Below the pieces are notes generated by a model, which saw only the letters and a list, made by a program, of their open reading frames with translations, did not search any database and was not told where the DNA came from. Positions 2-11,438 of a stretch of DNA of 32,000 bases are shown here, piece after piece. Location of the stretch: positions 270,001 to 302,000 of the forward strand of contig OZ253438.1 of the NCBI GenBank assembly GCA_965261025.1, written 5' to 3'. Origin of the DNA: Chlamydiales bacterium. GTDB taxonomy: Bacteria; Chlamydiota; Chlamydiia; Chlamydiales; SM23-39. The translations under genes and the position numbers were made by a program. Within the stretch, counting starts at the first letter, position 1; each line of letters starts with the position of its first letter.

Positions 2-184
2 GAAGCTTTCAAAAATGGGTTAATTCAAGACGGAGAAGTCTGGATGGAGATGATTCAGAGCCGAAATCGAACATCCCATACTTACAATCAGGAAATTGCA
101 CAACAAATTTCTCAGAGAGTTATTGAATTTTATTACCCCGCATTTGAGTTATTCGTTAAAAAAATGGAAGAGATAAAAGAGTGA
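2..184 (+). CDS. HEPN-domain protein of the HI0074 'nucleotidyltransferase substrate-binding' type. Only the 3' end is present; the 5' end lies outside the window.
   Basis: Frame-2 ORF is open from the window edge to TGA 182-184. The translation ...MIQSRNRTSHTYNQEIA... contains an Rx4H HEPN motif. It overlaps the next gene by 4 nt (GTGA). Confidence 0.7.
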   Translation, partial: EAFKNGLIQDGEVWMEMIQSRNRTSHTYNQEIAQQISQRVIEFYYPAFELFVKKMEEIKE

Positions 185-510
185 ATCAACCTGAAGCCAA
201 GTTCGGTCTTAAAGCTACTGAAATAAGCGCAGTTCATGGCGTTTTCAAACTGTTTCCTGATTTGAAAAAGGTTAGTATTTATGGTTCTCGAGCAAAAGGA
301 AATTATAGACCTGGATCTGATATAGATTTAACTCTACATGGTAAAAACCTGGCCTATCAGGATCTCGTAGCTATTGAAAATGCCCTAGACGAGCTATCTT
401 TACCCTATACAGTAGATCTTTCAATTTATCATCTTCTTGATAATCCAGATTTAATTGATCATATCAAGCGTGTTGGTATTGAATTTTATCAACAAGCCAA
501 AGATTGTTAA
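181..510 (+). CDS. Minimal nucleotidyltransferase (MNT/MntA-like), partner of the upstream HEPN protein
   Basis: 109-aa ORF with the GS-x(n)-DxD signature 'YGSRAKGNYRPGSDIDL'. Translationally coupled to the HEPN ORF. Confidence 0.85.
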   Translation: MNQPEAKFGLKATEISAVHGVFKLFPDLKKVSIYGSRAKGNYRPGSDIDLTLHGKNLAYQDLVAIENALDELSLPYTVDLSIYHLLDNPDLIDHIKRVGIEFYQQAKDC

Positions 511-725
511 GAGGTTGATATCAGCCCCAATATGGTCAAGATGAACCGGTAGTGACCTTGCCCCATTTTTAGGCCCAACCCTTTGTTAAGAGTGCTTAGT
601 TGGATGGTCCTCTTGAGTAATAAGCCAGGGCGTTTTCCCTTTTTTGGAGAAGTTTGGTCTCGCTAAATTATAAAAATGTCTGTAGCTTTCCGCCTTCCTT
701 AAAAAATCTTCCCTACAGCTAAATT

Positions 726-1040
726 GTGTCAGATTATAAAATTCTTCTTCATTCACATGCTGAGCGCATTTGGTACTCTGAGCAAATCATCAAAAATGGT
801 TGGTCTCGAACTGTATTAGTGATGAGAATAGAGCCCAAGTTACACAAGAGAAAAGGAAAAGCAGTCAATAATTTTGCACTAACGCTTCCAGAGCCTTATT
901 CAGACTTGGTCAAGGCAAAGACCCTAAAATTAAGCTATGCCTGGATGCAGTCTAAAGAATTTCGATCTAGGGTCTTGTGTGGTCTTTTATGTTCCTTTTT
1001 TGCTGCTAATTGGTCCACAGGCGGTCCCTACATAGAGTAA
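726..1040 (+). pseudogene. Fragment of a DUF1016/YhcG-type PD-(D/E)xK nuclease gene
   Basis: 'WYSEQIIKNGWSRTVLVMRIEPKLHKRKGKAVNNFALTLPEPYSDL' matches the middle of YhcG-like proteins. The N-terminal region and the nuclease core are missing, and the tail is unrelated sequence. Confidence 0.5.
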
Positions 1041-1101
1041 AAAACCAATACCTTTTTTAAGGATTTGATATAAACTGCATTAAAAACCAGATGAGTTTCA
1101 A

Positions 1102-2322
1102 ATGGATTTTCAATCTGAGAAAAAACGAATTGCTATTGTTTTGTTCATGATGGTGACTCTCGGTCAATTTGGTGTTGATTTATACCTGCCATCGATGCCG
1201 CATATTGCTACAGACCTACACAGTTCTATATCATCAATAAAGTTAACGATTCCTCTTTATTTATTAGGTTTTGGGCTTTCTCAACTTTTTTATGGTCCTA
1301 TATCTGACGCTACCGGCAGAAAACCGACTTTACATTTTGGGTTAGTTTTATTTTTAATCAGTTCTTTAGGAGTGTTATTTTCAACCAATTCATTAATGCT
1401 TATCGTTTTTCGTACTTTTCAAGGGTTGGGAATAGGAGCTGCAATTGTTAACGTAAGAGCTGTGATGCGGGATACTTTTCATGGTAAACAGATGGCCAAA
1501 GTCTCAGCCTGGATTGTTATGATTTGGTCTGTGACACCGATTGTGGCGCCTGTCCTCGGAGGGTATATCCAGAGCCATTTAGGGTGGAGAGCTAACTTTT
1601 CCGCAATGTTTTTCTACGCAGCATTAGTATGGTTATTTATTTTTCTTTTGCTTCCAGAAACTTTGGACAAAAATCACAGAAAGCCTTTTCACGTATCTGG
1701 TATGTTAAAAACGTATAAAAAAATATTTACCGACAAAGTTTTTTTATCGTTTAGCGTGATATCAGCATTATGTTACGGATATTTTATCAGTTATGCAACT
1801 GCTAGTCCTTTTTTATTTCAAACTCAATTAGGACTAACTCCTGTGCAGTATGGTTGGGCCATTTTGGCTATAGCATGCGGTACAGCCATAGGTTCAATTG
1901 TTTGTTATAGAATTGTTTCTTATGTAAAAATTACTCAACTTATCTTGATTGGCAGCTGTTTAATGTTAATTTCATCATGTATTTTATTTTTTCTTTCTTT
2001 AGGAGGGATATTTAATGTGGTTTCTCTTTTGGTTCCTCCTCTTATTGCCACTTTGGGTGGGGGTATGGTATTTCCAAATTGTACAACAGGGGCTATGACT
2101 CATTATAAAAAGAATGCAGGTGTCGCTGGGGCATCTCTAGGCTTTGTTCAAATGTTTATCAGCTTTATCTTTAGTATGATTATCAGTAATTTGCCAACAA
2201 AGAATGCATTTCCCCTATCAATTGAGTTGTTAATTATATCAATTTTGATTTTCTTTTTATTTCGTTTCTATATACAACCTCATTTTCTAGAAGAATTGGA
2301 AGAAACTCCAGAACGCATATGA
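1102..2322 (+). CDS. MFS transporter, Bcr/CflA drug-exporter subfamily
   Basis: 406 aa with about 12 hydrophobic segments. N-terminal signature 'GQFGVDLYLPSMPHIATDL...GPISDATGRKP' is typical of Bcr/CflA. Confidence 0.85.
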   Translation: MDFQSEKKRIAIVLFMMVTLGQFGVDLYLPSMPHIATDLHSSISSIKLTIPLYLLGFGLSQLFYGPISDATGRKPTLHFGLVLFLISSLGVLFSTNSLMLIVFRTFQGLGIGAAIVNVRAVMRDTFHGKQMAKVSAWIVMIWSVTPIVAPVLGGYIQSHLGWRANFSAMFFYAALVWLFIFLLLPETLDKNHRKPFHVSGMLKTYKKIFTDKVFLSFSVISALCYGYFISYATASPFLFQTQLGLTPVQYGWAILAIACGTAIGSIVCYRIVSYVKITQLILIGSCLMLISSCILFFLSLGGIFNVVSLLVPPLIATLGGGMVFPNCTTGAMTHYKKNAGVAGASLGFVQMFISFIFSMIISNLPTKNAFPLSIELLIISILIFFLFRFYIQPHFLEELEETPERI

Positions 2323-2445
2323 AATTATAATTTTACTGAATTTTTTCAGATTTAATCAGGTGGATTACGAATAGGATGACTTCCATGAACCTATCCTAAT
2401 TAAAGTTTGAGTTTGATATAGTTTCCTTTTTTTAAGGAGGTAACT

Positions 2446-2720
2446 ATGAAAAAGCCCTTTACTTGTCTTTCTGATTCTCAGTGGTCTTTAATTCATCAGT
2501 CTATGAACTGGACGCCACAAGAAAAAACAGAATAAACACACAAGAGATTTACGATTCTCTTAGAGTAGCAAGAAGGAGATGGGTGGTAGAAAGAACATTT
2601 TCCTGGTTGAAACGAAAAGGTAGAAGATTATTAATGAGATGGGAGAGAAATCCTATCACCTGGAATTCTTTTGCTTTTTTGGGGCTTGTTCATATGTGGC
2701 TAGGGACTTTATTAGGATAG
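2446..2720 (+). mobile_element. IS5-family (IS427/IS1031-like) transposase remnant with an internal deletion
   Basis: An AAGGAGG RBS precedes ATG 2446. The N-terminus 'MKKPFTCLSDSQWSLI' stops after 29 codons. It is followed by the family's C-terminal 'RRWVVERTFSWLKRKGRRLLMRWERN' (ORF 2481-2720). The catalytic core is absent. Confidence 0.7.
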
Positions 2721-2734
2721 ATTCATAAACTGAG

Positions 2735-3639
2735 ATGGAGATTAATTTAGAAGCTTATCAAAAACACTTTGCTCTAGAGTCTGCAAAATTTGTTCGCATT
2801 GATCACGCCAATACAATTATTGCAGTAGTATATAAAGTTGTTACATCAGACAAAAATCATTTATTCTGAAGATATGTCCTCGAGAGAAGGATTATTTTCG
2901 AGAAGCTTATTTTCTCCGTCAGCTCAGTGGGTGCATCCCAGTGCCACAGGTTATTGCTGCTTTCGAACCCTCATACGACCATTTTGGTGCTATTTTAATG
3001 GAGTATCTGGAGGGAGAGCTTCTTAAAACTGAAGATTGGTCGCATGATTTGGCTTTTGAAATTGGTATTGTCTTAGCTCGTCTTCATAGTAATCAAACCG
3101 AGACATATGGAGAGGTATCCAAACATCAAACTTTAATTCAAAAACCCAATTTGTACTTTAATGAAAAATTTGAAGAAGAGCTTGGCGAATGCAAAGGACA
3201 TCTTCCAGAAAACGTTATTGAAAACTGTGCTTTATATCTTAAGGCTTGTCAAGGCCTTTTGGCAGAGGTTGATGGCCCTTGTTTAGTACACCGTGATTTT
3301 CGGCCAGGGAATATGGTCGTCAGGCATGGGAAGTTGCAAGGCATTCTTGATTGGTCTAGCGCCCGCTCGGGATTTGCTGAGCAAGACTTTTGTTCACTGG
3401 AACATTTTCAGTGGATGCCAGATGCGGGTTATAAGAAAGTCTTCCTGGACGGCTATTCTAGTATTCGTCCGGTTCCAAATTATCAAAGGATAATGCCGTT
3501 ACTTCAGCTAGGAAGATCGCTTGCAGTGATTGGATATGCTGTCAAAAGTGATACATGGAACAGTAGTAATGCAAGTTTGTATGCTCTCAATCGGAAGTTC
3601 TTAGATTCCTTTAATTTTTTTCCCAATTCATCCCAATAA
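2735..3639 (+). pseudogene. APH/choline-kinase-family phosphotransferase, frameshifted
   Basis: ATG 2735 reads '...AVVYKVVTSDKNHLF*' and stops at 2867-2869. The reading continues in the -1 frame as 'ILKICPREKDYFREAYFLRQLSG...'. The catalytic loop 'LVHRDFRPGNMVV' and 'ILDWSSA' are present downstream. Confidence 0.75.
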
Positions 3640-3770
3640 AATTCTTTAATAGCTCCAAAAAAGTGTTAAAAAACGAGTTTATCCTGACAAAGATTCTGAC
3701 ATAATGCCCTGTGTTGTTGTACTGAACTATGCCAGAATAAAATAGCTGCTATTAAGCAACTCAAGTGTAT

Positions 3771-3950
3771 GAGGCAACCTGGACTTGATACCGAAGGCTT
3801 GATAGGTTATGAGGGAGAAGGAATTCCAGTTCATCCAGTAAAGACCAACTCTTATCAAAAGTAGTATAAATGGCTTGTAGAATGATTACTACTGGTTATT
3901 ATGGGTCTTTGCTGGAAAAAGTTGTACTTAAGTGCACCATTTTTGCACCA
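3771..3950 (-). repeat. Degenerate copy of the tRNA(CAU) 3' half (anticodon loop to 3' end) plus a shared arm of about 130 bp (repeat R1)
   Basis: 'ggcaacctggacttga...ggttatgag' matches 10651-10690. The remainder aligns with 6960-7090, with scattered substitutions. Confidence 0.8.
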
Positions 3951-4034
3951 GATTTGAGGTGTTATAATTTTTTTTGCTTCTAAATTATTGTATGTGATTC
4001 AATTCTGAACCCCAAAAAATCTTAAGAAGTTCAT

Positions 4035-6170
4035 ATGCGAAAGATAAAGCTATGGGTTCCTCTTTTTATGGTAACTTTAATGCCTTTTTCTTTAGTGCAT
4101 TCAGAAGAGGTATTTTCTCCTATATGTATTTTTTCTAATCCAGAGTTTATAAAATGGAAAGCTCCTAACAATTACGATCAAATTCTAGAACTTTTAGATG
4201 AGATAGAGTCGGATGATTTTGAAAAAAAATATTCTCAAGAAGACTTAGAAAATATCACAGAATATCTCATCTTTTTATCTAGAGAAGGTTTATTGCCTGG
4301 AGAATTTGAAGAAGCCATTGAACTAGAAGAAGACATTCAGGAATTACTTCAGGATAAGGAGTTATATGAACCTACTGGTTTTTCTAAGAATCCTCAAGGA
4401 TATCTAGTTGAATCGGGAGTGTTTTTATTGAATTCTTCTTTTTCTATTACAAACTGTGGTTTTGCTAAGGGATGGAAGAAGACAAAAAAGTTCTGTAAGA
4501 AACACAAAAAGGCAATAATTATAGGGGCTGTTATCGTTGTTGCAGTGGCTGCTGTTACAGTAGCTGTGGTAGTCGCAACTTCGACAAGTGCTGCGTCAGC
4601 AGCGGGGGGTGCAACGGGAGCTGTTGGAGCTGCTGTTTCTGATTCTGGATCAACTAAATCTGAATCCAGTGGAAGACTTTCTTCTAATTCAAGCACCTCT
4701 CAAACATCTTCAAATACTGCTCCAACTTTCCAAGCGGTTATGGAAGATCAGGTCACTTCTTTCAAAGATCACCTCGCTGATGAGAGTTTTTTCTCATCCC
4801 CTGAGGCCGGTCGGGGGCTTTCAGTAGAAGAAACAGGCAGAGTTTCCGGGGTTCTTTTCGCACACGATAGCTTCAATTACTTTAACAGCCAAATTCCAAA
4901 CTATCCTCAGCTTTCTGAGGAGTTGCGTAGTATTAGTTCACACCCTAGCTTTACTTTGCCTCTTGGAGCGATTAATAATCCTGTAGGATTTGGACATCAT
5001 GAGATTGACTCGAAGTTTTCCAGCAACTGCGGGGCAACATTCTCAGATCCATCTAAAGAAGTAAACATTGACGCCCTTTCCTATCAGATACGAGGAGAGA
5101 CAGCGCGTTATTATGGATATTATGGTCAGGCAGTGAATGACTTTAGCAAAGCCATTAGCATGAATCCAACAGATCCTATGCCCTATCTACAAAGGAGCGT
5201 CTCTTATTTTGATATGGGTCAATATAATGAGTCTTTCGAAGATTTTCGGAAATTTACTACTCAAATTGAGAAGGTGCCAGAAAAGATCCCATTTTCGACT
5301 CCAGAATTTACTCTTGGATTTGCAAAAGGGCTTCCGAAAGGAATCTATGAATCCGGAAAAGGGGTTATGTTATTTCTTGGGGATTTGATTACCCATCCCA
5401 TTCATACTTCAACACAGATGTATGAAGCGCTTTCAACACTTGCTAGTTTGGCTCGTAACGATGAATGGGGTGTTATTGGTGAAGTATTATCTCCAGAAAT
5501 TCACCAATTGATTACCCAGTGGGATACTCTTCCTTCAGATGAAAGAGGAGAATTAGCTGGATATGCGTTTGGAAAACATGGAGCAGACATAGTAGTCCCT
5601 GGAGCCGCAGCCAAAATTGCAAGTAAGAGTGTAAAGAGTGCTAGAGAGCTAGTGACCATTTTAAAAAATCTCCAAATAGCTGAAGAAACAATTGTGCTCG
5701 AAACTGCTGCTGGAATTGGAAACACAGCTAGAGCAGGAGAAATCTTAAATGCTGGCAAAACAAGCGCATTTCTCGGAGAAGAACTCGGGTTCACTGCAAA
5801 GGAAATGGGACAACTGCAAAAGACTGGAAAATTGGAAGGCGCAATTAACAGTCTTTTGGATAGATTAGTCTCCCAATCAGAAAGCGAGGTATTCAAAGCT
5901 GCAATTAGCAAAGACAGCCATGTGAAGATGGTAAGAGACTATCTCTCAAAACCAGCTAAAGAGGTCCAAAAGGGAATCAAAAGCTATGAAAAACAAATAG
6001 CCCTTCACCAAGAAAAAATTGCAAACCCGTCAAAGTTCATCCCCCACTGGGATAAGCTACATCCGGAAAGACAGCAAGCTTTAATCAATAAAAAATGGCC
6101 AGCTGAGATACAATGCTATACTGAACAAAGAAATATCCTACAATCAATTCTAAATGAAAGGATTAAATAA
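4035..6170 (+). CDS. Polymorphic-toxin-like protein: signal peptide, acidic domain, TM helix, Ser-rich linker, conserved TPR-containing core, and a variable C-terminal module (5838-6167)
   Basis: 711-aa ORF. The N-terminus 'MRKIKLWVPLFMVTLMPFSLVHS' is signal-like. The TM helix is 'AIIIGAVIVVAVAAVTVAVVVA'. The core is near-identical to 8612-9789, and the C-terminal 110 aa are unrelated to the paralogue. Confidence 0.6.
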   Translation: MRKIKLWVPLFMVTLMPFSLVHSEEVFSPICIFSNPEFIKWKAPNNYDQILELLDEIESDDFEKKYSQEDLENITEYLIFLSREGLLPGEFEEAIELEEDIQELLQDKELYEPTGFSKNPQGYLVESGVFLLNSSFSITNCGFAKGWKKTKKFCKKHKKAIIIGAVIVVAVAAVTVAVVVATSTSAASAAGGATGAVGAAVSDSGSTKSESSGRLSSNSSTSQTSSNTAPTFQAVMEDQVTSFKDHLADESFFSSPEAGRGLSVEETGRVSGVLFAHDSFNYFNSQIPNYPQLSEELRSISSHPSFTLPLGAINNPVGFGHHEIDSKFSSNCGATFSDPSKEVNIDALSYQIRGETARYYGYYGQAVNDFSKAISMNPTDPMPYLQRSVSYFDMGQYNESFEDFRKFTTQIEKVPEKIPFSTPEFTLGFAKGLPKGIYESGKGVMLFLGDLITHPIHTSTQMYEALSTLASLARNDEWGVIGEVLSPEIHQLITQWDTLPSDERGELAGYAFGKHGADIVVPGAAAKIASKSVKSARELVTILKNLQIAEETIVLETAAGIGNTARAGEILNAGKTSAFLGEELGFTAKEMGQLQKTGKLEGAINSLLDRLVSQSESEVFKAAISKDSHVKMVRDYLSKPAKEVQKGIKSYEKQIALHQEKIANPSKFIPHWDKLHPERQQALINKKWPAEIQCYTEQRNILQSILNERIK

Positions 6171-6414
6171 AATTATGGAAGATGAGAAATATAAAAGTTA
6201 TATTATAGATTTAATATCCATAATTAAAAAACAAGCAAAAGAAGCGAAAATAGAAGCAGATCATCCAAAAGAGGCGTGTGAGAGCTTTAATAACGGCTAT
6301 CTTATGGCATATCACACAGTGATTGAATTTATGAAGAATCAAGCCGAAGTTTTCAATATCGACCAAGAAGATATTGGTTTGGCTGACATCGAACCAGAGC
6401 GTGATTTACTTTGA
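6154..6414 (+). CDS. Small acidic protein, putative cognate immunity or partner of the upstream C-terminal module
   Basis: 86-aa ORF overlapping the toxin stop; an alternative ATG lies at 6175. Its position and size fit an immunity gene. No homology was verified. Confidence 0.45.
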   Translation: MKGLNKIMEDEKYKSYIIDLISIIKKQAKEAKIEADHPKEACESFNNGYLMAYHTVIEFMKNQAEVFNIDQEDIGLADIEPERDLL

Positions 6415-6527
6415 TCTACCAAATATTAAAATTGTCCTAGCCAGAGCTTCACTTGACAAACGCTACTTATTTGTAATAGGCAAAACTTTATTTGACATTT
6501 TTAAGAAAACAACGGGAATAGCATTAA

Positions 6528-6572
6528 GGTTCAGATCAGCCGCCTCTCCGAGCGGCTGGGCTGATCTGAACC
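6528..6572. other. Strong GC-rich hairpin (14-bp perfect stem)
   Basis: ggttcagatcagcc (6528-6541) is the reverse complement of ggctgatctgaacc (6559-6572). There is no canonical U-tract on the + strand. Confidence 0.6.
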
Positions 6573-6815
6573 AATGCAAAAAAAATTCACTTTTGCCAAT
6601 TCTGCGTGGTGATCGAAAGTTGGTCTTTTTAGCTCCGTTGGGATTTTCAGATTCTTCTTTATGAACCCAATGTATTCGAAGAAGAGATAACAGGACTGAA
6701 CTGGTCGAAATCTTCGCCCAAATGTTTTTATAAACGGATCGTGTAAGTCGTCCCAATTTTGAGGAACCTCGATTAACGATCTCACCACAGAATTATCAAA
6801 ATAAACCAATTCCAT
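6531..6815 (-). CDS. Hypothetical protein, possibly a gene remnant
   Basis: 94-aa ORF with no recognisable motif. Its 3' end runs into the hairpin, and it overlaps another minus-strand ORF. Confidence 0.2.
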   Translation of the reverse strand: MELVYFDNSVVRSLIEVPQNWDDLHDPFIKTFGRRFRPVQSCYLFFEYIGFIKKNLKIPTELKRPTFDHHAELAKVNFFCIGSDQPSRSERRLI

Positions 6816-6900
6816 TACACGTTCCCTTGAGATCTTGCAACAATTTTTTAGACACTACAAATCTGAATAATTTAAAAATTATAATGACTGTTATCTAATG

Positions 6901-7090
6901 GCTTATAAAAATGGGGCAACCTGGACTTGATACCGAAGGCCCGACGGGTTATGAGGGAGAAAGAATTCTAGTTCATCCAGTAAAGACCAACTCTTATCAA
7001 CAACAGTATAAATACCTGTAGAATGATTGCTCCTGGTTATTATGGGGCTTTGCTGGCAAAAGTTGCACCTCAGTGCACCATTTTTGCACC
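6901..7090 (-). repeat. Degenerate copy of the tRNA(CAU) 3' half with 3' flank, plus a shared arm of about 130 bp (repeat R2)
   Basis: 'gcttataaaaatggggcaacctggacttga...cgacgggttatgag' matches 10638-10690. Identity stops exactly at the anticodon loop, and the T-stem is disrupted. Confidence 0.85.
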
Positions 7091-7191
7091 CAATTACGCT
7101 CCCATTAGACTGAGTATAGATAGATTTTTTAGAAAACATCTTGAATTACCAAATATATTTGGTAAAATAACGTTAGAGTAGGGGATGTCCA

Positions 7192-7380
7192 GTGCCGATT
7201 AGTGGAAAGGAACTAGCAAAGCTATTTAAAAAGCAAGGGTATGAGGAAATAAAAAAAGGCGGTAAAGGGTCTCACATAAAGCTTAGGAAGGGGAATAGAA
7301 CTATTATCATTCCAGGGCATAAAGAATTAAAGAAAGGTCTTGAATTGGCTTTAAGAAAGCAGTTAGAGGGAGAAAGGTAA
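7192..7380 (+). CDS. hicA: HicA mRNA-interferase toxin
   Basis: 62 aa. 'GKELAKLFKKQGYEEIKKGGKGSHIKLRKGNRTIIIPGHKELKKG' is the YcfA/HicA pattern. GTG start. Confidence 0.85.
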   Translation: MPISGKELAKLFKKQGYEEIKKGGKGSHIKLRKGNRTIIIPGHKELKKGLELALRKQLEGER

Positions 7381-7805
7381 TGAGATACCATTTTAAAATT
7401 CATAAAGAAAAAAATGGCTTCTGGGCTGAGTGCTTGGAGTTGCCTGGTTGTGTTACTCAGGGTAATTCAAAAGAAGAGCTAAACAAAAATATGCAAGAAG
7501 CTCTAAATCTTTATTTAGAAGAGGAAGAAGATATCGATTTTTTACCAGCTCTTCCTAAGAAATCTATCAAATTAGGTCGTAATATCAGAGAAGTCCCTGT
7601 CGATCCTTCTGTAGCTCTTGCTGTTTCTATTCGAAGAGAAAGAATACAAAAAGGACTTACTCAAAGAGAAGTGGCTAATCAGCTAGGAATGAAGGGGGTA
7701 TATAGTTATCAAAGACTTGAGAGAAGATGTAACCCTACTTTGGATTTGATTTATAAACTGGTTTTACTTTTTCCTGCTCTATCTTTAGATAAAGTTTTAC
7801 ATTGA
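7380..7805 (+). CDS. hicB: HicB antitoxin with a C-terminal XRE-type HTH
   Basis: 'YHFKIHKEKNGFWAECLELPGCVTQGNSKEE' is the HicB fold signature. 'LTQREVANQLGM' is the HTH. Its start overlaps the hicA stop. Confidence 0.85.
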   Translation: MRYHFKIHKEKNGFWAECLELPGCVTQGNSKEELNKNMQEALNLYLEEEEDIDFLPALPKKSIKLGRNIREVPVDPSVALAVSIRRERIQKGLTQREVANQLGMKGVYSYQRLERRCNPTLDLIYKLVLLFPALSLDKVLH

Positions 7806-7906
7806 TAATTCTAAAAAACTCTTTTCTCATCTTACATAGGTTTTTTTAAGCAAGGACTCTTTCTAGGAAGAACTCGTATTCTTCCAGAAAGATCTTTTTT
7901 AGTTTA

Positions 7907-8194
7907 TCAGAGTCTTTGCAAAGGATATCCCATCGAAGGGTAGAGAAGATCAAAGACACCTACATTTCCATTAGTATCTATGCTCATGCGAAATTCTTTG
8001 TGGGCATTGACTGTCGCCGCAAGAAGATAGATCATTGTTGGGTATAGTTTAACCTCTTTACCCTTAATTTCTTTCATCAAAGAGGTTAGGTCTAAATTAA
8101 CAGTCATGCTATATGTACAGGCAACTTGCTCAAGGTAATAATCAAAATACTCTTTACGATCCCAGGTAGAAATGTCTACTCGCTTAAAGGTCAT
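7907..8194 (-). pseudogene. cat: Type-A chloramphenicol acetyltransferase, N-terminal about 88 codons only
   Basis: 'VDISTWDRKEYFDYYLEQVACTYSMTVNLDLTSL...KLYPTMIYLLAATVNAHKEFRM' parallels the CAT N-terminus. The catalytic C-terminal half (HHAVCDG region) is absent. Confidence 0.8.
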
Positions 8195-8610
8195 GGAATT
8201 ACCTCATATTTTAGTTGTACTAATCCGCTCGGATACGATTGCGTAGAAATCAAGTGACATTTATGTTCTCGACTCATAACGCTAAATAGAGGGATGCCAG
8301 ATCCTAACACCATAGCAATAACAGATATAATGATTTCATCGACTAACCCCGCTTCTAAAAATCTAGAGACTGTAACACCCCCATCAATCCATATGTGCTT
8401 GATGTTTTCAGCGTGTAGTTTACTTAGTAGTTCTGTTAATTCCCCAGAAAATAGCTCGGCTTCTTTTCTGACTGTGTTCAAGGATTTACTAAGAACAATT
8501 ACTCTTTTATCTTTGTATGCCCAATCATCAAAACCAGCAACAACTTCATAGGTATTTTTACCCATAACCACCGCGTCGATACTGTTGGTAAATTTTTTGA
8601 ATCCGTTAAA
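8191..8610 (-). pseudogene. RibD_C/dihydrofolate-reductase-family gene, 5'-truncated
   Basis: 'FKKFTNSIDAVVMGKNTYE...IWIDGGVTVSRFLEAGLVDEIIISVIAMVLGSGIPLF' matches the RibD C-terminal-domain family. No start codon or N-terminal beta-strand remains. The reading frame runs into the toxin-paralogue junction. It overlaps cat by ATGA. Confidence 0.7.
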
Positions 8611-8691
8611 CCCGAATCCAGTGGAAGACTTTCTTCTAATTCAAGCACCTCTCAAACATCTTCAAATACTGCTCCTACTTTCCAAGCGGTT

Positions 8692-10209
8692 ATGGAAGGT
8701 CAAGTCAATTCTTTTAAAGATCACCTCGCTGGTGAGAACTTTTTCTCATTACCCGAGGCTGGCCGGGAGCTTTCAGTAGAAGAAACGGGCAGAGTTGCCG
8801 GAACTCTTTTCGCACACAATAGTTTTAATTACTTTAACAGCCAAATTCCAAACTATCCTCAGCTTTCTGAGGAGTTGCGTAGTATTAGTTCACACCCTAG
8901 CTTTACTTTGCCTCTTGGAGCGATTAATAATCCTGTAGGATTTGGACATCATGAGATTGACTCGAAGTTTTCCAGCAACTGCGGGGCAACATTCTCAGAT
9001 CCATCTAAAGAAGTAAACATTGACGCCCTTTCCTATCAGATACGAGGAGAGACAGCGCGTCATTATGGGTATTATGGTCAGGCAGTGGATGACTTTAGCA
9101 AAGCCATTAGCATGAACCCGATAGATCCTATGCCCTATCTACAAAGGAGCGTCTCTTATTTTGATATGGGTCAATATAATGAGTCTTTCGAAGATTTTCG
9201 GGAATTTACTACTCAAGTTGAGAAAGCGCCGGAAAAGATCCCATTTTCGACTCCAGAATTTACTCTTGGATTTGCAAAAGGGCTTCCGAAAGGAGTTTAC
9301 GAATCTGGAAAAGGGATTATGTTATTTCTTGGGGATTTGATCACCCATCCCATTCATACTTCAACACAGATGTATGAAGCGCTTTCAACACTTGCTAGTT
9401 TGGCTCATAACGATGAATGGGGTATTATTGGTGAGGTATTATCTCCAGAAATTCACCAATTGATTGTCCAGTGGGATACTCTTCCTTCAGATGAAAGAGG
9501 AGAATTAGCTGGATATGCGTTTGGAAAACATGGAGCAGACATAGTAGTCCCTGGAGCCGCAGCCAAAATTGCAAGTAAGAGTGTAAAGAGTGCTAGAGAG
9601 CTAGTGACCATTTTAAAAAATCTCCAAATAGCTGAAGAAACACTTGTTCTAGAAACGGCCGCGGGAGTAGGGAATACCGTTAAGGTCGGAGAAATTATAA
9701 AATCAGGCAAAAGTACTCTCTTTTTAGGAGAGGAATTAGGATTTACTGCAAAAGAAATGGGTCACCTAAAGCAGGCTGGGAAACTAGAAACCATTGTAAC
9801 AAAAGCTTATGAGAATCTGAATCTACCAATGCAAGAATCCATTAAGTTGTTCGATAAAGCTGAGGAATTCTTAAAGCCTTACCGGGAATTTATGCCCGAA
9901 GTTCGATGTAGAGAACTTATTCACAAAGCTGGCCTCCCAACCTTTCCTCGACCAGGAGGTATTCCAAAGAATTTCAGAGTCAAGGTCTCTGATAAGGGCG
10001 CTGGAATGACTTACTATCATCCAGAACATACTCATACTTCTATTAGAGTTATGCCCGGTAAACCTCACAGTCCCTGGCCTTATCAGCAAAAGCCTTATGT
10101 CATTCAAACAAAGAATGGAAGAATCTTAGATAAAGCAGGCAATGTGGTATCTCGTGATGCCCCAGAAGCTCATATAGCACTTGAAGAATTCATTTTTATA
10201 GGAGATTAA
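8692..10209 (+). CDS. 5'-truncated paralogue of 4035-6170 (orphan toxin module) with a different C-terminal module (9790-10206)
   Basis: Homology to copy 1 starts at about 8612 at a constant offset of 3952 nt. The signal peptide and TM helix are missing, and the first ATG is at 8692. The last 139 aa are unrelated to copy 1. Confidence 0.6.
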   Translation: MEGQVNSFKDHLAGENFFSLPEAGRELSVEETGRVAGTLFAHNSFNYFNSQIPNYPQLSEELRSISSHPSFTLPLGAINNPVGFGHHEIDSKFSSNCGATFSDPSKEVNIDALSYQIRGETARHYGYYGQAVDDFSKAISMNPIDPMPYLQRSVSYFDMGQYNESFEDFREFTTQVEKAPEKIPFSTPEFTLGFAKGLPKGVYESGKGIMLFLGDLITHPIHTSTQMYEALSTLASLAHNDEWGIIGEVLSPEIHQLIVQWDTLPSDERGELAGYAFGKHGADIVVPGAAAKIASKSVKSARELVTILKNLQIAEETLVLETAAGVGNTVKVGEIIKSGKSTLFLGEELGFTAKEMGHLKQAGKLETIVTKAYENLNLPMQESIKLFDKAEEFLKPYREFMPEVRCRELIHKAGLPTFPRPGGIPKNFRVKVSDKGAGMTYYHPEHTHTSIRVMPGKPHSPWPYQQKPYVIQTKNGRILDKAGNVVSRDAPEAHIALEEFIFIGD

Positions 10210-10211
10210 TC

Positions 10212-10562
10212 TTGAAACTTAATGAAGAAGATAAAAACTATATCCTGCAGGAACACCTAAAGCATATCTCTTGTATAGCCGATAAAGAATATCAAAAAAG
10301 AGTTTGGATAAATGGAGAAGGTCCTCAAGTGGATAGTTTTGAGGATACTGTTTGTGACTTTTTTACAACCTGTGACACTATTTTAGAGAATTATAAGGAC
10401 TTTAAGGTCACTGGCAAACAATATGATGTTTTAAAGCTCTTCCGTGATCGGTTCAGGGTTTTTTCAGATAAAAACAACCACCCTCATGAGTTCATAGATT
10501 CCCCAGAATGGGAACAAATTATGCGATTGGCAACGGAAGTACTAAAAGAGTTTAACTACTAA
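10212..10562 (+). CDS. Small protein, putative immunity or partner for the orphan C-terminal module
   Basis: 116-aa ORF starting at a TTG 2 nt after the toxin stop, with GGAGA about 7 nt upstream. It is unrelated to 6154-6414. Confidence 0.5.
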   Translation: MKLNEEDKNYILQEHLKHISCIADKEYQKRVWINGEGPQVDSFEDTVCDFFTTCDTILENYKDFKVTGKQYDVLKLFRDRFRVFSDKNNHPHEFIDSPEWEQIMRLATEVLKEFNY

Positions 10563-10640
10563 ATAGTTGAAGAAACACTTGTGCTGGAAACTGCTGCCGG
10601 AATTGGAAACACAGCTAGAGCAGGAGAAATCTTAAATGCT
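10561..10640 (+). pseudogene. 80-nt stub of the toxin conserved region (encodes 'EETLVLETAAGIGNTARAGEILNA')
   Basis: Ungapped hand alignment to 5674-5753 gives 4 mismatches in 80 nt. It ends where the tRNA flank 'tataaagatgggg' begins. Confidence 0.8.
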
Positions 10641-10648
10641 TATAAAGA

Positions 10649-10722
<74 letters not shown>

Positions 10723-10735
10723 GAGAAGGAACAAG

Positions 10736-10765
10736 AATATAACCGATTTATTTTAGGGAATGCAA
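10736..10765 (-). promoter_or_regulatory. Sigma-70-like promoter candidate for the tRNA
   Basis: On the minus strand: TTGCAT, a 17-nt spacer, then TTATAT, ending about 14 nt upstream of the tRNA 5' end. Confidence 0.4.
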
Positions 10766-10768
10766 GAA

Positions 10769-11029
10769 CTATAATGTCATAAAAACAAGTTCGAAATCAC
10801 GGAGCTCTCTATAGATTTTTTCTACCTGAGATAAACTGTCTGCACGAATTGTAAAAGTTAAAGAGAGATATTTTTTGTTTTTACTCCACTTTCTTCGAAT
10901 TCTATGGGAAGGAAGCTCTTTTACGTGATCCTCTACAATGGTAATAACCCTGCTTTCAAAGTGAGAAGTAGCCGGTCCCACTACCTTTATGGGGTATTCA
11001 CAAGGAAACTGATAGTAACTCTCCTGCAT
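10769..11029 (-). CDS. YbeD-like DUF493 (UPF0250) protein
   Basis: 86 aa. The 'FPCEYPIKVVG' motif and the size are typical of YbeD. Confidence 0.7.
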   Translation of the reverse strand: MQESYYQFPCEYPIKVVGPATSHFESRVITIVEDHVKELPSHRIRRKWSKNKKYLSLTFTIRADSLSQVEKIYRELRDFELVFMTL

Positions 11030-11075
11030 AAAGCCCTGTATAGAGTAGAGCTCATTTATTGTTCAACGAGAAAAC

Positions 11076-11438
11076 TTAACCTTCACAGAAGGGAAAGTAT
11101 TTTTGGGCCGCATGCACGGTATGTTTGGTAATAAGAGTATTTTTGAGAGCTCCAGGGTTGTTTGCCAGTTTTATAAGATCATCTGCTGTAATAAGCACAA
11201 CTGCCATACTCAATAGCCCAACAAAACTCACAGGAGTACATACAAAACAAGAAGCTATAGAAGGAGCAGCAAGAAAAACTTGAAAAACTATCGCTAATAC
11301 TCTAAATGTCAATTCATTAGAAGGTTCAGAAGCGGGCTTTTTTTCCCTAAGACCCTCTTTAAGAAGGATTGCGGTTTTCCTAAAGTTGTCTATATTCCTA
11401 TATAGACAATTTCCTACAATAGGAGAAATCTGTGACAT
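11076..11438 (-). CDS. Small membrane protein with a bilobed hydrophobic domain (Inc-like)
   Basis: 120 aa. 'FRVLAIVFQVFLAAPSIASCFVCTPVSFVGLLSMAVVLI' forms two hydrophobic lobes joined by a short turn. Confidence 0.45.
   Translation of the reverse strand: MSQISPIVGNCLYRNIDNFRKTAILLKEGLREKKPASEPSNELTFRVLAIVFQVFLAAPSIASCFVCTPVSFVGLLSMAVVLITADDLIKLANNPGALKNTLITKHTVHAAQKYFPFCEG

Follow-up and report, generated by a model that had tools for sequence, protein, structure and literature searches.

Organization of the locus

The locus described here occupies positions 4035–10640 of a 32,000-nucleotide (nt) stretch of the genome of a Chlamydiales bacterium (assembly GCA_965261025.1, contig OZ253438.1, positions 270,001–302,000 of the forward strand), which is hereafter called the window. 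It contains two genes on the same strand, gene 1 and gene 2, that have a near-identical core in common and end in different C-terminal domains, tail A and tail C. A small open reading frame (ORF) lies behind each gene; the two are named ImmA and ImmC, respectively, for their candidate role as immunity proteins. The locus ends with a stub of junction sequence just before a tRNA gene. The features are listed in Table 1.

Table 1. Features of the locus and its surroundings (window coordinates in nt; protein lengths in amino acids, aa)
Feature	Position	Strand	Description
Gene 1	4035–6170	+	Putative full-length toxin gene, 711 aa; from the ORF list and family alignment
Core repeat, copy 1	4656–5685	+	90–99% identical to 8608–9637
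Pre-toxin junction, gene 1	5686–5843	+	LVLETAAG...ELGFTAKEMGQLQKTGKLEGA; ~70% identical to the gene 2 junction
Tail A	5844–6167	+	108 aa, all-alpha, basic; candidate toxin domain
ImmA	6154–6414	+	86 aa, acidic; candidate immunity protein for tail A; 17-nt overlap with gene 1
Gene 2	8608–10209	+	5'-truncated orphan; ORF from ATG 8692, 505 aa
Tail C	9796–10206	+	137 aa; helical lead-in, then beta-rich PT7-like domain; predicted DNase
ImmC	10212–10562	+	116 aa, acidic; candidate immunity protein for tail C; 2 nt past the gene 2 stop
Stub	10561–10640	+	First 80 nt of a type-A pre-toxin junction
tRNA-Met (CAT), intact	10649–10722	-	Right edge of the locus
tRNA-Met 3' half, diverged copy A	3770–3813	-	3' end to anticodon loop
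Shared ~140-nt sequence, copy A	3814–3954	+	Upstream of gene 1
tRNA-Met 3' half, diverged copy B	6912–6955	-	The 15 nt before it (6896–6910) also precede the real tRNA
Shared ~140-nt sequence, copy B	6956–7095	+	Followed by hicAB, not by a toxin gene start
HicA	7192–7380	+	62 aa; HicA_toxin, E 1.2e-12
HicB	7380–7805	+	141 aa with helix-turn-helix domain; HTH_3, UPF0150 and HicB_lk matches
Chloramphenicol acetyltransferase (CAT) N-terminal fragment	7907–8194	-	86 of 205 profile positions
RibD_C/dihydrofolate reductase (DHFR)-like C-terminal fragment	8191–8571	-	Abuts the 5' breakpoint of gene 2

A repeat finder and pairwise alignment both place genes 1 and 2 in a direct repeat with a fixed offset of 3952 nt. 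Ungapped identities, calculated by segment for gene 1 coordinates against +3952, are 23% before position 4643 and climb within about 15 nt to 100% at 4662. Beyond this edge the identity is 90% at 4661–4900, 98% at 4901–5200, 95% at 5201–5500 and 99% at 5501–5685, which delimits a core of 1.03 kb in direct orientation that is 90–99% identical. Identity falls directly past the motif LQIAEET to 69–70% in the junction (5686–5837), and all likeness stops past GKLE. From 5838 on, the values of 24–27% represent background and the two tails are therefore unrelated; their lengths of 108 and 137 aa are counted from directly after GKLE+2. Comparison across the wider family (see below) indicates that the junction travels with the tail.

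The original prediction for this DNA, which a model had made from the letters alone, described a core shared at this offset that weakens past LQIAEET and ends past GKLE, unrelated C-termini each followed by a different small ORF of 86 or 116 aa, a second copy lacking the signal peptide and transmembrane helix, and an 80-nt third fragment of the junction. The repeat finder, the alignment and the segment identities reproduced the first of these descriptions, both ORFs lie where they had been placed behind tails with only background identity, and the truncation of gene 2 and the third fragment were likewise recovered (see below).

A chlamydial protein family with exchangeable tails

The protein encoded by gene 1 consists, in order, of a signal-like peptide (residues 1–23), a conserved acidic N domain, a Lys-rich stretch with a transmembrane helix (~145–182), a Ser/Ala linker, a helical core with a TPR pair (349–406), the junction and tail A. 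The one strong transmembrane helix spans residues ~160–182 and has nine Lys in the 15 residues before it. The TPR unit, already noted in the original prediction, scores 26.3 bits in gene 1 against a Pfam cut-off of 27 and reaches E 3.7e-10 in relatives.

Homologues of gene 1 number 184 at E ≤ 1e-3, and a scan of species-representative genomes gave 153 genomic stretches with a relative, often three or four per genome. All named sources are Chlamydiota, those named being Simkania negevensis, Candidatus Rhabdochlamydia, Candidatus Neptunochlamydia and metagenome-assembled genomes (MAGs) of Parachlamydiales and Simkaniaceae, while a few MAG labels name other phyla; the Chlamydiae-type host that had been surmised from the sequence agrees with this distribution. 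The alignment gives a common plan of a signal-like N-terminus, an acidic domain of ~100 aa, the motif WKKTKKFxKKHKK, one strongly hydrophobic helix, a Ser/Ala-rich linker, a helical region of ~350 aa with one TPR pair, and the junction ELGFTAKEMGQLKQAGKLE. Besides the TPR, no Pfam, NCBIfam or PDB relative of this scaffold was found. Pfam searches of 34 full-length members returned TPR families only, plus one Ntox50 and one DUF6550, and none of the members matched RHS repeats, FHA, DUF637, DUF1020 or LXG. A conserved chaperone or secretion gene beside the toxin gene was considered and rejected, since ORF clustering of 80 loci gave only immunity families and shadow ORFs. Tail A also terminates a shorter, second type of chlamydia-like scaffold, seen in three proteins of 433–511 aa (P0280, P0285 and P0275), which have the same acidic N domain and Lys-rich transmembrane anchor and are without the TPR core.

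When the region past the junction ELGFTAKEMGQLKQAGKLE was sorted in the 120 homologues listed, at least six mutually unrelated tail classes were found. Among these listed homologues, 55 carry class C, like gene 2, and 32 carry class A, like gene 1; a short tail with an HxH motif is present in 18 and a DUF4258-like tail (weak match) in seven, with a single member each for Ntox50 (P0080; Pfam E 4.5e-22) and for an otherwise unclassified tail. In 43 of 109 proteins, the closest relative by core belongs to another tail class, and unrelated tails are found on cores that are 94–95% identical. A survey of Chlamydiae for the same core with other C-termini had been recommended with the original prediction, and it has yielded swapped tails.

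The tails are paired with the ORFs that follow them. Across 80 loci plus the window, tail A is followed by a member of the ImmA family in 17 of 19 loci and tail C by a member of the ImmC family in 39 of 42, and the HxH tail has an ORF family of its own (11 of 12 loci). The distance from the toxin stop to the immunity start is mostly between -26 and +15 nt. The sole case of an A tail followed by ImmC is locus L046, whose fused A+C tail ends in the C domain. Conservation at the protein level extends over 17 genomes for the ImmA family and over 30 for the ImmC family. Tails A and C are basic (charges of +6 and +4), and ImmA and ImmC are acidic (-7 each) and without hydrophobic segments. The ORF of L046 (3337–7527) encodes 1,400 aa, of which a fused A-like and C-like tail makes up 297 aa, and an ImmC-type ORF lies behind it; this fused tail could be a recombination intermediate or a toxin with two warheads.

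Tail A and ImmA

The structural model of tail A is all-alpha, with a predicted local distance difference test score (pLDDT) of 88.8. An exhaustive profile search with this tail returned 1,340 cluster representatives at E ≤ 1e-3, and in 142 of the 146 best matches the domain ends ≤10 residues from the C-terminus. The carriers include RHS-repeat proteins, a DUF637 (CdiA-type) protein and an extracellular contractile injection system (eCIS)-core protein, and the tail is also present on an LXG/PT-TG pair of Bacillus safensis. Directly after these carriers lies an ORF of 79–81 aa that hhalign relates to ImmA, with a probability of 99.2% (E 7.5e-20) for the CdiA-like carrier, 98.6% (E 1.4e-15) for the eCIS carrier, 88.7% (E 2.6e-6) for the Bacillus LXG/PT-TG carrier and 79% (E 1.6e-5) for the RHS carrier. 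On these sequence comparisons, tail A is a widespread, uncurated C-terminal domain.

Six residues, two of them His and one each Lys, Arg, Ser and Glu, are kept in ≥85% of 137 diverse members of the tail A family, and H26, H55, K58 and R76 are conserved across the wider family. Searches with both tails, the small ORFs and whole-family alignments gave no curated Pfam or NCBIfam family for tail A, tail C or ImmA, and single-sequence searches of PDB sequences with the two tails gave chance matches only. In Foldseek comparisons with the PDB, the tail A model retrieved only generic helical hairpins (best E 1.7). Our guess is that tail A may be a nucleic-acid-directed enzyme, possibly an RNase. It might conceivably correspond to PT6 of Nachmias et al., which is likewise linked to eCIS.

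Tail C and ImmC

For tail C, the AlphaFold2 model (pLDDT 92.6) has a sole confident match in the PDB, the PT7(Bc)–PIM7 complex 8OWU (Foldseek, chain 8owu_C). The match has a probability of 1.00, a TM-score of 0.68 by target length and a root-mean-square deviation of 3.0 over 75 columns, and the next match has a probability of 0.06. The profile of the tail C family also aligns with chain 8owu_B (E 0.004, 20 bits), and the motifs R..P, LD..GN.V and P(D/E)AHIP are common to tail C and PT7; no Pfam model matched tail C. PT7 is a Mg-dependent non-specific endo-DNase that is toxic to both E. coli and yeast, and its toxicity is abolished by mutating D37 and H47 (bioRxiv 10.1101/2021.10.19.465003). 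Its carrier domain is LXG (type VII secretion), and Firmicutes and Proteobacteria are the only groups from which it was reported (bioRxiv 10.1101/2021.10.19.465003). Fold and motifs together suggest that tail C is a PT7-like metal-dependent DNase domain. ImmC gave only weak DUF7945/SCO4402-like matches. Judged by their relatives, neither tail is a new family, and both are drawn from a pan-bacterial toxin pool.

These relatives also bear on whether the family consists of toxins at all. The members could instead be membrane-anchored surface or inclusion proteins with C-termini that vary for adhesion or antigenic variation, the small ORFs then being chaperones. A scaffold with a transmembrane helix, a Ser-rich linker and a TPR pair but no recognised toxin-trafficking domain would suit such a role, as would the lack of a known enzymatic relative of tail A. 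However, tail C matches a proven DNase toxin, one member of the family carries Ntox50, and tail A and ImmA travel together on RHS, CdiA-like, eCIS and LXG proteins, so that a function in adhesion or antigenic variation appears very improbable.

Gene 2, the stub and other orphan cassettes

Gene 2, whose homology to gene 1 sets in at about 8608, lacks the first ~206 codons, which in gene 1 specify the signal-like peptide, the N domain and the transmembrane helix. The reading frame is open as far upstream as 8455, with the ATG at 8692 as the earliest start codon, and neither stops nor frameshifts interrupt the 505 codons of gene 2 or the 116 codons of ImmC. The stub is 95% identical to gene 1 (5674–5753) and 74% identical to gene 2, and reads IVEETLVLETAAGIGNTARAGEILNA in its own frame. 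Two other loci, L003 and L006, have a full-length type-C gene with an ImmC that is 97% identical to that of the window. In both, the same pre-toxin stub lies past ImmC, but there it runs on into the final ~25 codons of tail A, with an entire ImmA gene behind them. Since L003 and L006 keep this fuller cassette, we conclude that the stub of the window is the last trace of a type-A cassette that was displaced by a type-C cassette, in line with the tip-displacement model of Rhs systems. The internally deleted type-A cassette lies at 8457–8900 in L003 and at 8469–8912 in L006. Furthermore, the left edge of the stub coincides with the drop in identity between genes 1 and 2, both at about 5674–5690, which marks the left boundary of the exchangeable cassette comprising the junction, the tail and the immunity gene.

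Similar remnants occur elsewhere. Copies that are 5'-truncated and keep their immunity genes were found in L005, L009, L069 and L070, and dozens of proteins of 100–250 aa that consist of tail C only are encoded on long chlamydial contigs. In four loci, immunity ORFs of the HxH class lie as orphans past ImmA with no HxH toxin in the locus (L008 4891–5130, L012 3493–3630, L055 7549–7788 and L024 4716–4937). A stand-alone tail-C ORF of 104 aa with its ImmC gene (L049 3277–3969) is an orphan cassette outside the tRNA-bounded module of that locus, and lies 2 kb upstream of a full-length toxin gene with a different tail. A run of same-strand ORFs without Pfam matches was seen upstream of the toxin gene in L023 (642–5355). 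It includes paralogous ORFs of 193 and 195 aa and an ORF of 119 aa ending in '...NKIKKWGDRSWE', and may be an array of immunity genes and orphan toxins.

The original prediction had regarded gene 2 as an orphan cassette. This description stands for gene 2 with its ImmC and for the stub, but needs amending in that gene 2 is a long 5'-truncated copy among gene fragments and not a classical short displaced tip. It could even be that gene 2 and the stub are the decayed debris of a tandem duplication, or of a tandem insertion at tRNA-Met, with no role as a cassette reservoir and no history of recombination into gene 1. The part of the locus that holds gene 2 (module 2, see below) has lost its promoter-proximal part and contains hicAB as an insertion besides the CAT and RibD_C fragments. 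Gene 2 has no start codon upstream of 8692, the core shows similar numbers of synonymous and non-synonymous changes, and a promoter scan gave nothing above chance. Decay is less easily reconciled with the intact frames of gene 2 and ImmC, with an ImmC that shares 97% identity with the one behind a full-length toxin in L003, with a mosaic of core identities such as gene conversion would give, or with the recurrence of 5'-truncated copies with immunity genes in several genomes. We therefore consider it a doubtful, though by no means negligible, account of gene 2.

tRNA-Met modules and neighbouring genes

The repeated 3' half of tRNA-Met is 42 nt long and extends from the 3' end to the anticodon loop. 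Copies A and B together with their flank are 89% identical over 181 nt, and the two tRNA copies resemble each other more than the intact tRNA-Met; the corresponding region at the intact tRNA-Met spans 10633–10690. Since each begins with a tRNA-Met fragment and the shared sequence of ~140 nt, we regard the locus as two tandem modules. Module 1 continues with gene 1 and ImmA. Module 2 continues with hicAB, which appears to be an intact pair, the CAT fragment, the RibD_C/DHFR-like fragment, gene 2, ImmC and the stub. The shared sequence is probably the left end of the module or a 5' regulatory region. As in tRNA-integrated islands, the modules are bounded by direct repeats of the tRNA 3' end, and they may represent decayed integrative elements or tandem duplications. 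No integrase or recombinase family matched among the ORFs scanned, which were those at 181–11438 and did not include the ORFs of 11.6–32 kb, and a promoter and terminator scan performed no better on the window than on shuffled sequence.

The same tRNA-Met module layout is present in L049, around a toxin gene with yet another tail and with an equivalent of the ~140-nt sequence upstream that is 67–70% identical. The repeats of L049 lie at 5318–5755 and 9937–10268, with a duplicated DUF1016-like ORF fragment beside each copy. Linkage to tRNA-Met recurs in the window, L049, L023 and L061 (in the latter two, to tRNA-Met or a fragment of it). A general linkage of the toxin loci to tRNA genes was rejected, since a tRNA or tmRNA is found within ≤6 kb in only about 10 of 60 loci.

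Gene fragments cluster in the left third of the window (7907–8571 on the minus strand, 2941–3639, 726–1037 and 181–507). Besides the CAT and RibD_C/DHFR-like pieces, they comprise a DUF1016_N piece and an APH-family phosphotransferase whose match begins at profile position 56. A small Polbeta-type nucleotidyltransferase is located there as well.

The bracketing of the locus by tRNA-Met fragments, the hicAB pair within it and the resemblance of the DUF4258-like tails to toxins of toxin-antitoxin systems could suggest that the pairs of tail and small ORF are chromosomal addiction modules which stabilise a tRNA-linked island and are not exported weapons. Addiction would leave unexplained why the toxin domain is fused to a membrane-associated scaffold of ~600 aa in >150 loci, why the toxin comes first and the immunity gene second, and why the same tails are found on secreted RHS, CdiA-like and eCIS proteins. 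We give this explanation hardly any weight.

Proposed function of the locus

The features by which polymorphic toxins, in the sense of Zhang, Aravind and colleagues (2012), are recognised at the sequence level are all present in this family, namely tails that vary, an immunity gene that covaries with them, toxin domains that recur on other scaffolds, and orphan cassettes. Its architecture is modular, tail class and immunity class are paired, tails have been swapped recurrently, and the warheads are common to other delivery systems. We propose that the locus is very probably a polymorphic toxin-immunity locus on a scaffold of environmental Chlamydiota, with gene 1 as the working toxin, gene 2 as a headless orphan and the stub as the remnant of a displaced cassette. 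The original prediction had recognised the polymorphic-toxin layout, which the at least six tail classes with their class-specific downstream ORFs support. It had also named findings that would speak against this idea: one fixed C-terminus in all homologues, no adjacent small ORF, and no structural similarity of the C-terminal modules to enzymes. The homologues have unrelated tails instead of a fixed one, a small ORF of the matching family is adjacent in most loci of the three classes counted, and enzyme similarity was found in the match of tail C to the PT7 DNase and in the Ntox50 member. Since every one of these points that could be put to the test came out in favour of a toxin locus, the interpretation is supported.

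The following course is our inference as regards toxicity and neutralisation of the tails, a DNase action of tail C, a switch by recombination, the route of export and the target. Gene 1 would give rise to an exported or membrane-presented toxin in which the conserved N-terminal region of ~600 aa serves export and presentation, while tail A, as the exchangeable toxic domain, would act on nucleic acid. ImmA would bind tail A and block it in the producer. Gene 2 as it stands could presumably not be exported, and would keep ImmC expressed, or at least available, against the type-C toxins of neighbours. A single homologous crossover within the 1.03-kb core would delete 3,952 bp and thereby re-arm the full-length scaffold with tail C and ImmC. 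The mosaic identity of the core, with 90% in one stretch and 98–99% in others, fits ongoing gene conversion between the two copies.

Several observations weigh against this interpretation. The Sec-like signal is followed by a transmembrane helix with nine Lys on its N-terminal side, and by the positive-inside rule the toxin end would stay in the cytoplasm. No conserved secretion or accessory gene was found next to the loci when the ORFs of 80 loci were clustered. Neither sequence nor structure searches gave tail A a PDB, Pfam or NCBIfam relative of known activity. The sequence match between tail C and PT7 is borderline (E 0.004), and Asp37 of PT7 appears, from the alignment spacing, to pair with the invariant Met86 of tail C. 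D37 is Ala in the crystallised PT7 mutant ('RIAPP') and H47 falls beside a four-residue gap in the tail C alignment; elsewhere, tail C does have invariant His, Asp and Glu residues. Since Asp37 is apparently Met in the chlamydial family, the active site of tail C may differ from that of PT7. The ImmC profile matches no chain of 8OWU, meaning that ImmC is not similar to PIM7. Finally, the cores of genes 1 and 2 differ by 19 synonymous and 21 non-synonymous changes over 342 codons, with no strong synonymous bias, and gene 2 lies amid gene fragments (CAT, DHFR-like) and may be decaying.

The target may be sought in a rival bacterium or in the eukaryotic host. In the latter case, the modular proteins would be effectors against an amoeba or another protist, with small ORFs that protect the producer before export and a diversity of tails that tracks host defences. 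In favour of this, the bacteria live exclusively inside host cells, PT7 poisons yeast and bacteria alike, any non-specific DNase calls for an immunity protein irrespective of its target, and a transmembrane helix with an unusual N-terminus would suit a secreted, membrane-inserted effector. Zhang et al. 2012 (PMC3482391) also present most toxin-like proteins of chlamydiae and other endosymbionts as directed against the host. Nevertheless, orphan immunity genes are found without a matching toxin (ImmA in L003 and L006; HxH-type in L008, L012, L055 and L024), and their retention is more easily explained by protection against the toxins of other cells. The adjacent immunity genes of Simkania were taken as a sign of intraspecific conflict in the same work (PMC3482391), and both warheads are otherwise found on interbacterial weapons (RHS, CdiA-like, LXG). 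We regard host effectors as rather unlikely overall. Thus the retained orphan immunity genes favour a rival bacterium as the target, while the toxicity of PT7 to yeast and the intracellular lifestyle keep the host open as another.

For the polymorphic-toxin interpretation, we tentatively suggest, as a possibility that we would put somewhat below even, that the N-terminal region of ~600 aa is an undescribed delivery module of environmental Chlamydiota which is used against rival bacteria in the same host cell or vacuole, and that its warheads and immunity genes are exchanged by recombination, partly on small tRNA-Met-linked modules.

Polymorphic toxins are usually thought of as weapons of free-living or extracellular bacteria. 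The family described here is spread in multiple copies over Simkaniaceae, Rhabdochlamydiaceae and Parachlamydiales and shows the full signature of kin-directed warfare, with strict pairing, orphan cassettes, orphan immunity genes and frequent tail swapping. It thereby opens to test whether chlamydiae in amoebae are at war with one another or with other intracellular bacteria, for example Legionella. With a scaffold that has no known trafficking domain, it also allows a route of export to be worked out, and it links two uncurated domain families to a function, that of tail A and ImmA (>1,300 cluster representatives) and the chlamydial branch of PT7.

Zhang et al. 2012 (PMC3482391) list chlamydiae as carrying Ntox50 along with many other toxin domains, and the URI-domain toxins of Simkania with adjacent immunity genes are interpreted there as rare cases of intraspecific conflict in endosymbionts. 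Endosymbionts are otherwise reported to have toxins but hardly any immunity genes (PMC3482391). The passages of PMC3482391 consulted give no account of the present scaffold and its junction motif, of tails A and C, of the tail-immunity pairing or of chlamydial orphan cassettes, and in the literature we found no published description of the scaffold, the junction, the pairing or such cassettes. The undescribed toxin family of the original prediction is accordingly plausible for the scaffold, for which no Pfam, NCBIfam or PDB relative besides the TPR was found, but not for warheads A and C, which are not new families.

Comparison with known systems

With PT7/PIM7 of Bacillus cereus (8OWU), tail C has in common the predicted fold and the C-terminal motif LD..GN.V....P(D/E)AHIP, as well as the C-terminal position in a polymorphic toxin with an acidic immunity protein encoded downstream. 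The two differ in that PT7 is carried on LXG and tail C on the chlamydial scaffold, and ImmC is not detectably related to PIM7.

Rhs/YD-repeat and CdiA toxins with orphan cassettes have reportedly been described by Poole et al. 2011 and Koskiniemi et al. 2014 and are reviewed in PMC3482391. In these systems, a sharp demarcation motif likewise precedes the variable tail, a cognate immunity gene lies downstream, and displaced or orphan tips retain a piece of the core that allows tails to be swapped by recombination. Tail A itself is found on RHS and DUF637 proteins. In contrast, RHS repeats, the YD shell, FHA repeats, DUF637 and the VENN motif were not found in the chlamydial proteins, and the chlamydial orphan, gene 2, keeps an unusually long core of 1.03 kb.

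Polymorphic toxins of the MafB/MafI type have reportedly been described in Neisseria by Jamet et al. 2015, and are reported to be classed as 'T2SS (MafBN)' in Zhang et al. 2012. Conceptually, the MafB islands are the closest known system. They too have a lineage-restricted conserved N-terminal region with a signal peptide and a variable C-terminal toxin with an immunity gene directly downstream. A genome likewise holds several such loci, and C-terminal cassettes that are 5'-truncated are kept as spares with immunity genes of their own. The N-terminal domain of MafB (DUF1020) was not detected in the chlamydial proteins, whose scaffold differs by its internal transmembrane helix, Ser/Ala linker and TPR core and whose carrier differs in being an obligate intracellular bacterium. 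Polymorphic-toxin systems of this kind are already known, and what appears to be new is the chlamydial scaffold.

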